64,000 bases of DNA, taken from NCBI GenBank assembly GCA_964525635.1, contig CAZGJX010000003.1, positions 44,189 through 108,188 of the forward strand, written 5' to 3'. Both the position numbers and the translations under genes were made by a program. The stretch is from an uncultured archaeon (GTDB lineage Archaea > Asgardarchaeota > Lokiarchaeia > Sigyniarchaeales > SOKP01). The notes under the pieces were generated by a model. That model was not told the origin of the DNA. It ran no database searches and worked only from the letters and a program-made list of their open reading frames with translations. Of this stretch, positions 17,407 to 28,219 are shown piece after piece (position 1 is the first letter of the stretch; every line of letters begins with the position of its first letter).

Positions 17407-18561
17407 ATGAATATAAGTGGTTTAGTCAGAAAAGAATTTGGTCGATTAAGAAGTGATAAAAGGACTTTAATTCTATTATTTGCAATTCCGCTTGTATTAA
17501 TAATAATATTTGGATTAACTTCAGGAGGGGGTCCTTCAGAATTCTTTCATGCATCAATTATAACAAGAGATGATATGGATTCTTCATATCCGTTTCCCCC
17601 GATGAGTTCTGAATATGATGAAGTATTTATATCGATTTTTAATGATAATCTTACCTCCTTTGGCCTTGAAAGTTATTATAATGTATCAAATGAAGAAGAA
17701 TATTCTGAAGCCTATATTAATTGTAAAAATTTACTGAAAAAGGAGATTATTGATATTTTTATAGTATTACCAGAAAATTTCTCCGAGACCGTCAGGGATA
17801 ACTTAGACACGCATTTAATTTACTATATAGATGGATCGGATCTACAAGCAGTGAAAGCAATTAATGTTTCAATGTTAGAGCCTATAGTCCAATTCAAATT
17901 AAGAACAGGAAAGATGGTTAATTTTACTATGTTGTTGCCATATTTAGAATTTGAAGTACCTTTTTGGGAATCACAAGTATTAAATTATGCTTTTGCATTA
18001 ACAATTCCTTTAATAATTATAGGAACAACAATGAATCTTTCATGTTTATCAATTGTGTCAGAAGGACCTTTACCAAGAATGCTTATTACTCCTGCTTCAA
18101 AAAGATCTATTATACTAAGTAAATTAGTCGCAAATTCATTAATTATGATACTTCAAGCAGGAGAAATTTTTATTGCAACTGCTATATTTGGTCTTTATAG
18201 TTTAGGTTCATTATTTGATTTATTTTTAGTATTTCTTGCAATTGGATTTAGTGGAGTAACTATAGGTATTTTTATATCATCAATAAGTAAAACGGATCAA
18301 CAAGCAAATCAACTCTATATGGTCTTTTTTATTATTATTTTATTATTTTCAGGACAATTTGTAAGTGTTGGGAATCTTCCTGCCTATATGCAGGCCATTA
18401 TCTATTCACTTCCTTTAGGACATGGTATACCGCTTACATTTGATATAACATTAAAAGGATTGCCATTAAATCTTATAACTTTTTCCAGTATAATATTTAT
18501 ATCTTTGGTATATATACTCTTGGCTTATATCATTTATTTATTTAAAAGAATAGAGGTTTGA
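17407..18561 (+). CDS. ABC-2 type (YbhR/YbhS-like) transporter permease with extracytoplasmic domain
   Basis: KEF..L..D start, TM1, large loop, RMLITP, five further TMs, FSG.F...LP.YMQ.I...LP. Confidence 0.88.
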   Translation: MNISGLVRKEFGRLRSDKRTLILLFAIPLVLIIIFGLTSGGGPSEFFHASIITRDDMDSSYPFPPMSSEYDEVFISIFNDNLTSFGLESYYNVSNEEEYSEAYINCKNLLKKEIIDIFIVLPENFSETVRDNLDTHLIYYIDGSDLQAVKAINVSMLEPIVQFKLRTGKMVNFTMLLPYLEFEVPFWESQVLNYAFALTIPLIIIGTTMNLSCLSIVSEGPLPRMLITPASKRSIILSKLVANSLIMILQAGEIFIATAIFGLYSLGSLFDLFLVFLAIGFSGVTIGIFISSISKTDQQANQLYMVFFIIILLFSGQFVSVGNLPAYMQAIIYSLPLGHGIPLTFDITLKGLPLNLITFSSIIFISLVYILLAYIIYLFKRIEV

Positions 18562-19787
18562 AAATGAATAGTGAAAATGAATTAAAAGATAAAAAGAATG
18601 ATCAAGGAGGATTAATTAGAGTTAAGAGTAGCTTATTTAGGATTTTAAAAATGATTAAAAAAGAATTTAGATTATTAAAAACTGATCCTTGGAATTTAGT
18701 AATTGCTATATTAATACCTCCGCTCATTATTATGTTATTTTCTTTTATGACGGGAGAAGCAGGAGAATCACCACCATTACCTGTAGTTATTGTTTCAAAT
18801 GATTCAAATACTTTTATAAATCCAAATAATTACACAGAATCAACATTGGATAGTTATTCCATACCTTACATAAATGCTGCGAATAAGTCAGAATTGTTAG
18901 ATCTTAAGGCCGTCTATAACTCAACAAAATTTCCATATTCTATGGAAATTGCAAGAGAAGAGTTACTTAAAAGCAAAATTGGTTGTATTATTGTTATTCC
19001 TGTAGAATTTACGGAATTGTTAGTCTTAGGATATCCCGGAATAATTGAATGTATCCCAGATTCTTCGAGAATTTCTAAAGTTCAAGATAGTATTAATGCA
19101 GTATATGATTCGATCAAGATTTTTGTTGAAGATAATCATTTAACTCCTCAAATTATTTTAAATGGATTTGAAGAATTTTCTGTCCCAGAAGAATATAATT
19201 TAAAATTTAGCTCTAATATAATACAATTATTACCTCTCATGGTATTTGGGATAGCAAATGTATTGACGATTCTTGTTATCGTTAAAGAAAATCCTATTTC
19301 TAGACTCTTACTAACTCCTGTTAAAAAAACAGAGATACTCATCTCAAAATATTTTACTTATTCGGTCGTATTATTCTTTCAAAATTTGGCTATAATTCTT
19401 GCTACAGTATTTAGTGGATTATATATAAGAGGATCTACTTTCGATCTTTTTGGAGCATTGTATATAATTGGTTATACTGGAATAAGTATGGGTCTTTTTA
19501 TTAGTTCCATTAGTAAAACAAAAACAGAAGCAAATCAATTATTTTTTGCTTCTTTTATAATAATAATCCTTTTAAGTGGATTATTTGTCCCATTAGGAAG
19601 CATGCCCATATATCTAAGTTTATTCGCTCAATTATTGCCTTTATCTCATGCAAATCCCCTAATTAGAAGTGTATTATCAAAAGGGAACTCTATTTTCGGA
19701 TATCATTTCTATATATTATTATTAGTAAGTTTAGCTTTGAATATTATTACATTTTTAATATTTTATAAAAGGAGGTATGAAGTATAA
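18558..19787 (+). CDS. ABC-2 type transporter permease, second paralog
   Basis: KKEFRLLKTD, RLLLTPVKK, LLSGLFVPLGSMP; overlaps the upstream permease by 4 nt. Confidence 0.88.
   Translation: MKMNSENELKDKKNDQGGLIRVKSSLFRILKMIKKEFRLLKTDPWNLVIAILIPPLIIMLFSFMTGEAGESPPLPVVIVSNDSNTFINPNNYTESTLDSYSIPYINAANKSELLDLKAVYNSTKFPYSMEIAREELLKSKIGCIIVIPVEFTELLVLGYPGIIECIPDSSRISKVQDSINAVYDSIKIFVEDNHLTPQIILNGFEEFSVPEEYNLKFSSNIIQLLPLMVFGIANVLTILVIVKENPISRLLLTPVKKTEILISKYFTYSVVLFFQNLAIILATVFSGLYIRGSTFDLFGALYIIGYTGISMGLFISSISKTKTEANQLFFASFIIIILLSGLFVPLGSMPIYLSLFAQLLPLSHANPLIRSVLSKGNSIFGYHFYILLLVSLALNIITFLIFYKRRYEV
19771..19776 (+). promoter_or_regulatory. Shine-Dalgarno site for the ABC ATPase
   Basis: GGAGGT lies 7 nt upstream of an in-frame ATA (19784). 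Confidence 0.5.
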
Positions 19788-20788
19788 TTCTGGGAAATTT
19801 AAATTCTAAAAATATAATCGTCAATGTAAGAAATCTCAAAGTTAACTTTAAAAAAAAAAAAATTATTCATGACGTATCCTTTCAAGTCTACAAAGGAGAA
19901 ATTATTGGATTATTTGGAATATCTGGGGCAGGTAAGACAACTATAATTAGAGTTCTAACTTGCCAAATAAAGGAAAAAAATTGGAAAGGGATAGTATCAG
20001 TAACTAATTTAAATCCTAAAAGAAAAAAGAATCATTCAAAAATACTGAGTAATATAGGATATGTTCCTCAGTTAGAATTACTTAATCTATATTATGATTT
20101 ATCTCCTTTGGTAAATGTTGAAATATTTGCATCTAATTATGGACTAAAAAAAGAAATTGCATTAAAAGCTGCAAAAGATTTATTTTCAATTTTAGATATC
20201 CCAAAAGATACCTGGAAAAATCCATTAGAAAAACTTAGTGGTGGTGAGAAAAAGAGAGTTTCTATGGCTATTGGTTTAATTCATAAACCTAGTGTATTAT
20301 TTCTCGATGAGCCAACGACAGGAGTAGATGCAAACAAACGTTATGATATTTTAAATTATCTAAAGATATTAAATAGAAAATTGGGAACAACTATGTTTTT
20401 AATTACACATGATCTAGAAGCAGCTTTAATATGTGATAAAACAGCAATTTTAAGAGAAGGAAAATTATTAGAATTTGATGAACCACACAATTTAATATCC
20501 TCTCTTCCAAGTGAAGGAAAATTAGCAAGATTTATAATAGAGGACTTAAATGAGGATATAATTAATTTAATACAAGAATTTCCTTATTGTGAGTTTGTAG
20601 TTCGCACGGGAAATGATGTATTAGAAGTATTTATGAATGATTTTGAAAAAAATTTTATGGAATTTATCAATTTTTTATTTAACAATAAAGTAAAAATAAT
20701 TTCAATGAGTAGAGATATAGCAAATTTTAGGAGATATTTTCAAATACGAATTCAAGAAGAAGAAAGAAAAATTTATGAAAATTTATGA
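19784..20788 (+). CDS. ABC transporter ATP-binding protein (extended 5' of the ORF-track start; probable ATA start)
   Basis: The frame is open from 19781 and in frame with 20108. The extension carries Walker A GISGAGKTT and Q-loop IGYVPQ; downstream are LSGGEKKR, FLDEPT and ITHD. No ATG/GTG/TTG occurs before Walker A. Confidence 0.85.
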   Translation: MILGNLNSKNIIVNVRNLKVNFKKKKIIHDVSFQVYKGEIIGLFGISGAGKTTIIRVLTCQIKEKNWKGIVSVTNLNPKRKKNHSKILSNIGYVPQLELLNLYYDLSPLVNVEIFASNYGLKKEIALKAAKDLFSILDIPKDTWKNPLEKLSGGEKKRVSMAIGLIHKPSVLFLDEPTTGVDANKRYDILNYLKILNRKLGTTMFLITHDLEAALICDKTAILREGKLLEFDEPHNLISSLPSEGKLARFIIEDLNEDIINLIQEFPYCEFVVRTGNDVLEVFMNDFEKNFMEFINFLFNNKVKIISMSRDIANFRRYFQIRIQEEERKIYENL

Positions 20789-27371: not shown

Positions 27372-27394
27372 TTAAATTAAAAAGAGGAAGTTAT

Positions 27395-28219
27395 ATGATT
27401 AAGAATATCTATATTTTAAGCAGAAATGGGATGTTGCTATATTCAAAAAATTTTATTGAACAAAAATACGATGATAATTTATTAATTGGATTCTTTACGT
27501 CAGTAGAAAATTTTAGTCGAGAAGCTTTAGAAAGTATTGTAAAATTTATAGATCTTGGTGTAGATAATAAATTAATCCTTAAACCAAAACCAGATGAAAA
27601 GATCTTTGGTGCAGCTATAGTAAGTTCTAAGGATAACAATATATTAGTGGGTAAGATACTTGATAACATATTGCAAGATTTTATTGATGATTTTTCACCT
27701 GATTATAATCTTGATAGAAAAAGTAAAAGTAAAATGGATAAAAATATAGAGGACAATCTAAAAAAACGGACATCTTCATCATTAAGAATTAGAATATTAA
27801 AAACTTGGTTAATATTAGGACCACTTGGATTATTACTTACAATTATTAACATAATGGCGACAGAATATTTTATTTCATCCAGACAATCTGAATATGGATC
27901 TTTTTTTTATATGGAAGATATTCTATTAAGCATAATACCACAAGTAGTTTTAATTTCTTTAGCTGAACTTGTTTTAGTATTTGGTGTTGCTAATTTCATA
28001 TCTGGATATATAATATTAGACCTCAAGCTAGCTGCTATAAATGTACTTCTATATTTTGGTTATATTCTTATCTTTTACTTTATATCTGTAAAACCTGTCT
28101 TAGCTCTGATTATTCTCACGTTTTTTCCATTCATTATAGTCGCATCTTTATTGGCAGCATATCTTGGTTATGTTTTAGCGCTTCAGAGAATAACACTTAG
28201 AGTAAAAGAAATAGATTAA
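27395..28219 (+). CDS. Longin-like domain fused to about 4 TM helices
   Basis: IYILSRNGMLLYSKNF...LLIGFFTSVENFSRE is a typical longin N-terminus; the C-terminal half is hydrophobic. Confidence 0.68.
   Translation: MIKNIYILSRNGMLLYSKNFIEQKYDDNLLIGFFTSVENFSREALESIVKFIDLGVDNKLILKPKPDEKIFGAAIVSSKDNNILVGKILDNILQDFIDDFSPDYNLDRKSKSKMDKNIEDNLKKRTSSSLRIRILKTWLILGPLGLLLTIINIMATEYFISSRQSEYGSFFYMEDILLSIIPQVVLISLAELVLVFGVANFISGYIILDLKLAAINVLLYFGYILIFYFISVKPVLALIILTFFPFIIVASLLAAYLGYVLALQRITLRVKEID

Follow-up and report, generated by a model that had tools for sequence, protein, structure and literature searches.

A predicted type V ABC transporter cassette of Lokiarchaeia with a double-toroid ectodomain and a catalytically dead third ATPase

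Here we describe a six-gene cassette within a 64,000-nucleotide stretch of DNA (the window; positions 44,189 to 108,188 of contig CAZGJX010000003.1, labeled C3 here) from the 4.45 Mb genome of an uncultured lokiarchaeon (assembly GCA_964525635.1). The cassette encodes two ABC-2 permeases, a soluble ATP-binding cassette (ABC) ATPase, a second ATPase fused to a large helical toroid, a catalytically dead third ATPase with two UBC/RWD-type (UEV) domains, and a membrane protein with a putative longin domain. All six genes proved real on checking, and they evolve as a unit that is conserved across Lokiarchaeia. Judged by sequence, its core is a type V ABC transporter, but not a member of YbhFSR or ABCA by their defining features, and the reading that we tentatively prefer, with a probability of about 0.45, is a heterodimeric exporter or floppase for lipid-like cargo (lipid or isoprenoid) equipped with a binding ectodomain and adaptor subunits. 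Gene order and fusion tie eukaryote-signature folds (tandem UEV/RWD, longin and prenyltransferase-type barrel) to one Asgard membrane machine, and the cassette gives orphan UEV/RWD, longin and barrel domains a context in which they can be tested.

Conservation and transporter core

We refer to the six-gene cassette of this window as type A, and to a wider Asgard ABC operon with a dead subtilase-GIFT protein as type B. Synteny was assessed in 34 testable related loci, whose genomes are kin and whose counts are not independent. In all 34, no more than 6 kb separates the dead-ATPase gene from the toroid-fusion gene; the dead gene is directly 3' of the fusion in 29 and is followed by the longin gene in 27. 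The first-pass annotation of the window had proposed that the ABC operon and the downstream dead-ATPase and longin genes belong together, and relatives do keep them together; the two opposite-strand genes found between them are, however, an insertion seen only in the genus of the window. In two genomes of this genus the same two-gene insertion of 1.6-2.0 kb parts the fusion and the dead gene. It consists of a multi-pass membrane protein of 239 amino acids (aa) that matches no family (23997..24716, minus strand) and a small soluble protein of 152 aa (24921..25379, minus strand) that is longin-like by eye only, its profile match not being significant. In three genomes of family f6 the dead gene is inverted beside the gene of the soluble ATPase and is followed by no longin gene. 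In a set of 301 genomes from the phylum, the complete toroid fusion was found only in the class of the window and in one genome of another family (L074 in genome G216, family f27). This sole out-of-class type A cassette, which has a short dead nucleotide-binding domain (NBD; 337 aa) and no longin gene after it, is possibly the product of transfer or mis-binning. A promoter and terminator scan gave signals at chance level.

Permease A (384 aa, 17407..18561, plus strand, as are all genes of the conserved set) and its paralog permease B (409 aa, 18558..19787, about 30% identical) match the Pfam family ABC2_membrane_3 above its cut-off (E 2.5e-21 and 1.3e-20). Their alignment lays out an elbow helix, a first transmembrane helix, an external domain of about 140 aa and then five helices, a layout which, as predicted, agrees with the type V definition of an N-terminal elbow helix and six ABCG/ABCA/Wzm-type helices. 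The best full-length match of the permease profile in the PDB is Tribolium ABCH (E 1.4e-32), no ABCA was found there at E<0.1, and E. coli YbhS is 22% identical over 354 columns (E 1e-9); both permeases are classed as YbhS/ABCH-type with an external domain. No fused permease of greater length came up when one was looked for, which counts as weak evidence.

The soluble ATPase (about 332 aa, 19790..20788) comprises an intact NBD, NBD1, and a C-terminal ACT-like domain. As called from a TTG at 20108 it lacks Walker A, but its frame is open from 19781 and, read from a CTG at 19790, it gives a complete NBD of 332 aa; a truncated gene is ruled out by this open upstream frame. Relatives start NBD1 at an ATG or TTG in the same place, and the window copy therefore would start at a CTG or ATN codon between 19784 and 19820. 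The following gene (20815..23973, 1052 aa) encodes the toroid-ATPase fusion, that is, a membrane anchor, the toroid, a second membrane helix and a second intact NBD, NBD2 (23020..23973), with all catalytic motifs and a C-terminal domain. Its frame is open from 20812, 49 codons 5' of the first ATG (20959), and the upstream stretch encodes a conserved basic and hydrophobic N-terminal membrane anchor; an ATA codon, the presumed start, lies 6 nt 3' of a ribosome-binding-like GGTGA/AGTGA motif, an arrangement found again in two relatives of the genus. Two consecutive genes thus appear to start at non-AUG codons (CTG/ATN within 19784-19820, and ATA at 20815), and the open reading frames called initially stand as genes but begin too far downstream. 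Gene calls in databases often shorten the fusion in the same way and lose its membrane anchor.

NBD1 and NBD2 are both complete, both carry all catalytic motifs and differ from each other. The best PDB match of NBD1 is ABCA3 (8e-39), with ABCA1 at 3e-36, so that the label ABCA-like given earlier fits the ATPases, but not the permeases. The best NCBIfam models for the NBDs, DrrA and RbbA, both stay under their cut-offs, and the RbbA model, which spans the whole protein, scores 133-140 bits against a cut-off of 1050. As in YbhFSR, RbbA/YhhJ, DrrAB and insect ABCH (PDB 8YZP, 9JU6), two paralogous permeases with an elbow helix and an external domain are combined with two different NBDs, each with all motifs. 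In contrast to these systems the cassette has no gene for a membrane-fusion protein, its NBD2 is fused to a doubly anchored toroid, and both a third, dead NBD and a longin subunit are added. The likeness to ABCA1, ABCA3 and ABCA4 extends to an NBD followed by a beta-alpha-beta-beta-alpha-beta C-terminal (regulatory, R) domain; ABCA, however, is a single chain in which transmembrane, extracellular, nucleotide-binding and R domains occur twice, whereas the cassette parts lie on separate genes and its permease profile does not find ABCA.

The toroid ectodomain and the adaptor-like subunits

The toroid (20905..22878) was modeled with AlphaFold at a pLDDT of 94 as a domain of about 650 residues with twelve helical hairpins, which form a pair of (alpha/alpha)6 barrels like that of protein-prenyltransferase beta subunits, and its two halves are homologous (hhalign E 1.4e-27). 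Foldseek returned geranylgeranyltransferase (GGTase) beta subunits as best matches (E 5.7e-10), and superposition on a GGTase beta structure gave Z 26.8 and a root-mean-square deviation (rmsd) of 2.9 for 285 residues across model residues 10-647, compared with Z 18.5 over 469 residues for squalene-hopene cyclase. The prenyltransferase barrel recognized in the first reading therefore holds as a fold; it is double, lies between membrane helices and lacks the catalytic residues. Such barrels with QW-like repeats are shared with the beta subunits of RabGGTase, GGTase-I and farnesyltransferase (Z 26-27 for GGTase beta) and with the squalene-hopene and oxidosqualene cyclases. To judge by the span of the single-barrel matches (residues 10-647), one barrel is probably made of the first hairpin and the last five, with the other barrel inserted as in squalene cyclase, and with this layout both membrane anchors would exit the same barrel. 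Repeats 8-12 hold most of the invariant columns, the barrel with both anchors being the better conserved one, and the loops of repeats 9-11 contain 16, 6 and 9 large hydrophobic residues, versus 3-5 in the other repeats. Asp623, Asp630 and Asn633 are invariant and form a candidate polar site.

The zinc ligands of prenyltransferases (a DxC motif in the fifth repeat and a His in the sixth) were sought at positions set by the repeat register of the family; the penultimate repeat of the toroid has no DxC, and Asn633 occupies the zinc-His position in 115/115 rows. None of the repeat consensus sequences contains a cyclase acid motif (DxDD or DCTAE), and the equivalent position in repeat 10 is Ile or Val in 113 of the 115 rows. 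An active prenyltransferase or cyclase is ruled out by these missing motifs, for which reason we read the toroid as a binding module and regard isoprenoid chemistry as unlikely. The toroid also differs from prenyltransferases in its predicted extracytoplasmic location, in its anchoring at both ends and in that no alpha-subunit gene occurs in the cassette. Placed between two membrane helices it would face outward; the sequon density per 100 aa is 2.4 for the ectodomain and 2.9 for the permease loops, versus 0.4-0.6 for the dead subunit. A single toroid of 366 aa is encoded elsewhere in the same genome (G000 C2:102129-103226).

The dead-ATPase gene (25659..27371) encodes two tandem, cysteine-free UBC/RWD (UEV) fold domains (25659..26324), followed by a catalytically dead NBD with a conserved C-terminal ACT-like domain (26325..27371). 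Its model (pLDDT 85.5) has the UBC-type topology twice, along with an ABC fold and, at the C terminus, a ferredoxin-like domain. According to the alignment, none of the five catalytic motifs (Walker A, Q-loop, signature, Walker B and H-loop) is retained in the NBD, apart from traces of the signature in distantly related family members, and the earlier idea of swappable NBDs as working alternatives is therefore not supported. A pseudogene is ruled out, as the gene is full-length in some 80 homologs, and one apparently split copy (L023) reflects an assembly gap. ABCA4 was the top Foldseek match of the subunit, and fold matches scored by Z include ABCA4 (7e7i: Z 17.9, rmsd 5.4, 299 residues), TM_1403 (Z 19.5, rmsd 3.4, 259 residues) and NosDFY (Z 17.7, not above generic NBDs). 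Specific to this family, the C-terminal domain shows higher conservation than the NBD core (0.60 vs 0.51). Its profile scores a median of 34 bits on type A and 22 bits on type B NBD2 rows and 16-20 bits on NBD1 rows, all against 2 on other ABC-2 ATPases.

The UBC/RWD arrangement (alpha-beta-beta-beta-YPxxP-beta-alpha-alpha) is seen twice in the secondary structure of the model. When the N-terminal profile was searched against 1.8 billion proteins, those reached carried Pfam matches to UQ_con (19/86), RWD (16/86), BRE (4) and FANCL_d1 (2), with the UQ_con and RWD matches falling mostly on the second repeat; model and transitive matches together bear out the UBC/RWD-like fold noted previously, as two tandem domains and not one. 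Whole-model Foldseek and VIA searches were taken up by NBD matches and did not inform on the N-terminal part, a PDB sequence search with the UEV profile returned nothing meaningful, and an ESM Atlas feature match to BRE (0.77) serves as a lead only. An active E2 is ruled out, since the first 222 residues of the window protein contain no cysteine and the alignment shows no HPN motif. The subunit resembles BRE/BRCC45 and FANCL in having two consecutive UBC folds with a YPxxP motif and no catalytic cysteine, but here the pair, which may bind ubiquitin, is fused to a dead ABC ATPase. The same genome encodes further UEV-like proteins with three or four repeats (G000 C23:30272-31927) or a single UEV (C67:2656-3363).

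The last gene (27395..28219) encodes a putative longin domain (residues 1-125) and about four membrane helices. This assignment is indirect: the family profile finds five of the seven Fuz_longin_1 places of the same genome (E 6e-9 to 4e-5), which agrees with the membrane longin proposed at first, while direct Pfam searching gave no passing match (best Sybindin, E 0.016), the PDB sequence search with the profile returned nothing meaningful, and an ESM Atlas feature match to roadblock/longin (0.82) is a lead only. The genome holds dozens of longin-like domains. No small GTPase and no SNARE or coat partner was seen as a recurring neighbor of the cassette, and beyond the folds themselves we found no evidence for the suggested link to ubiquitin or trafficking.

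Origin from a wider Asgard operon

In a mixture-model tree all three cassette NBDs form one clade (95/89), apart from YbhF, RbbA, YadG and the other ATPases of the genome. This agrees with the earlier view of one paralogous set, as does the alignment of the three segments following the NBDs that had been quoted for it, and in the comparison with YbhF that had been called for, the cassette falls outside that group. Approximately unbiased (AU) tests of where the dead NBD branches reject neither a placement with NBD2 (p 0.58) nor one with NBD1 (p 0.58) or with other ABC-2 ATPases (p 0.41), and the C-terminal domain of this subunit has its best profile score with NBD2. A single clade of type A NBD1 and type A NBD2 is rejected (AU, p 5e-6), and the two-ATPase design is therefore older than the cassette.

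Other Asgard families commonly carry the NBD2 lineage (72/76, 5/5, 16/19 and 6/6). In most of the type B loci sampled (L030-L043, L055-L063, L067-L082) it is accompanied by one or two permeases, NBD1 and a membrane-anchored subtilase-GIFT protein of 1300-1800 residues, which has a full catalytic triad in only 1/31 cases and an oxyanion Asn replaced by Asp in 31/31; this giant is absent next to four type B loci of families f13 and f6. Type B NBD2 carries winged-helix (PCI/UFL1-like) or other cytoplasmic repeats, and the operon has no dead-NBD or longin genes. Cassette and type B operon share the permease, NBD1 and NBD2 lineages, but differ in the surface partner, which in the cassette is a toroid fused to NBD2. 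GldA/GldF/GldG-type systems likewise pair ABC-2 components with a GIFT-domain partner, whereas the cassette contains no GIFT or subtilase gene. No type B NBD2 was found in the genome of the window; the closed genomes G044 and G055 (6,035,313 bases, locus L043) have type B only. We found no paper on the cassette, its domain combination or the type B operon in literature searches of incomplete coverage.

For both ATPases, tree placement puts type A within type B, together with one and the same winged-helix sub-lineage (99/97 and 100/99), and we therefore regard the cassette as a variant, found in Lokiarchaeia, in which the surface pseudo-enzyme has been swapped and fused. It may have arisen from the wider operon when the separate subtilase-GIFT protein was replaced by the fused toroid and two adaptor genes were added. 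The fusion suggests that the surface pseudo-enzyme of this wider Asgard family is physically coupled to NBD2, and the close matches to ABCH and ABCA lipid exporters, as far as sequence goes, may give the family a bearing on their origin.

Possible function and neighboring features

Tribolium ABCH serves in lipid export. Export of a lipid or isoprenoid is favored here because the nearest solved relatives (ABCH for the permeases, ABCA3 and ABCA1 for the ATPases) are lipid exporters and because the prenyl-type barrel has hydrophobic loops; by this analogy the cargo would be lipid-like. Type V ABC transporters include the ABCA and ABCG lipid exporters (PMC8386196). Permeases A and B would form the channel and NBD1 and NBD2 the motor, while the toroid would sit outside with its better conserved barrel, carrying both anchors, at the membrane, where the hydrophobic loops and a prenyl-type cavity could receive or gate the lipid or isoprenoid at the exit. 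By way of the C-terminal domain that the NBDs share, the dead NBD would join the complex, and together with the membrane longin and its own two UEV-type domains it may act as a non-catalytic adaptor or regulator. Several points weigh against this proposal. The ancestral partner in type B is a dead peptidase that does not point to lipids, and some type V systems, such as ABCA4, import (PMC8386196). Matches of the toroid fold include TED and ribophorin II, such folds also being plain binding scaffolds, and the nested barrel layout was read from alignment ranges and not from coordinates. Sequon enrichment over expectation is alike in NBD2 (2.0 vs 1.8) and hence not specific, so that it is chiefly the pattern of helices that speaks for an outward topology.

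An unlikely but still serious competitor is a non-transporting sensor or mechanotransducer, in which the ABC cycle would move or read a ligand-binding pseudo-enzyme ectodomain and the UEV pair and longin would relay its state to cytoplasmic partners. NosDFY, FtsEX and BceAB-S are precedents for such a device, and the first of these is also, at the level of generic NBDs, a structural match to the dead subunit. In favor of this reading, the motor is accompanied in both branches of the family by a large, sequon-rich enzyme fold at the surface that is catalytically dead, and the NBD2 lineage varies in what it carries at the N terminus (a toroid, winged-helix repeats or other cytoplasmic domains). 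The permeases, however, retain the full ABCH/YbhS-like architecture, and genes for kinases, GTPases or ubiquitin did not recur in the neighbor clusters, which are only partly annotated. We would give only a small chance to an ATP-gated surface receptor whose dead-enzyme ectodomain binds extracellular lipid or isoprenoid and whose ABC cycle signals to the tandem UEV and longin subunits. If true, this would connect a prokaryotic ABC motor with machinery of the ubiquitin-like or membrane-trafficking kind in the group most closely related to eukaryotes.

It is similarly improbable that the system is an importer or scavenger, with the tethered toroid capturing extracellular lipids or isoprenoids, the type V core flipping them inward and the type B subtilase capturing peptides. 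A dead enzyme fold can retain a binding site, and the importer ABCA4 is the top Foldseek match of the dead subunit, but this rank reflects the NBD and regulatory domain and not the direction of transport, and prokaryotic DrrAB/YbhFSR/RbbA-like ABC-2 systems, which gave the best NCBIfam matches, are annotated as exporters. Two co-regulated modules, a four-gene transporter and a separate dead-NBD/longin pair sharing an operon by descent, would agree with the insertion that cuts off this pair in the genus of the window, with the inverted dead genes of family f6 and with a type B operon that works without the pair, but seem very improbable given that the dead gene stays with the cassette in every testable locus, even when inverted, and that its C-terminal domain is family-specific and conserved beyond the NBD core.

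Downstream of the cassette, FAD_binding_4 oxidoreductase and CCG/Fe-S genes lie at 28396-29880 and 33366-34778, and a FAD_binding_4 gene occurs near the cassette in ten other fetched loci. A second ABC ATPase on the minus strand (about 32100-33130) is probably a pseudogene, with in-frame stops TAA at 33038, TAG at 32834 and TGA at 32678, and adjoins a small permease-like reading frame (31329-31892). Upstream, a PAS histidine kinase with two receiver genes (11276-13782) and a DUF4139-like gene (15845-17203), both recognized by sequence, are not conserved beside the cassette.

The NBD1 gene of the window has no insert, and a bulge-helix-bulge scan of the window gave no frame-restoring candidate. 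Twelve relatives from several genera (L001:4056, L005:8286, L010:4906, L014:7681, L016, L044-L050), by contrast, carry a bulge-helix-bulge insert of 31-34 nt at one site just after Walker B, equivalent to window position about 20320. Eleven of the 12 break the frame and one carries stops, and removal restores the protein. Compensatory changes occur among the inserts, and the flanking exon pair is complementary in 12/12 intron-bearing versus 7/26 intron-free genes, kin that are not independent. These inserts look like tRNA-type mRNA introns; in the one RNA run of an intron-bearing relative the reads do not cover the intron. Two further NBD1 genes depart from the usual length, one reading frame being about 200 aa longer (L009:3389-4990) and another combining the intron with a 27-residue in-frame deletion in the helical subdomain (L050:4165-4653).

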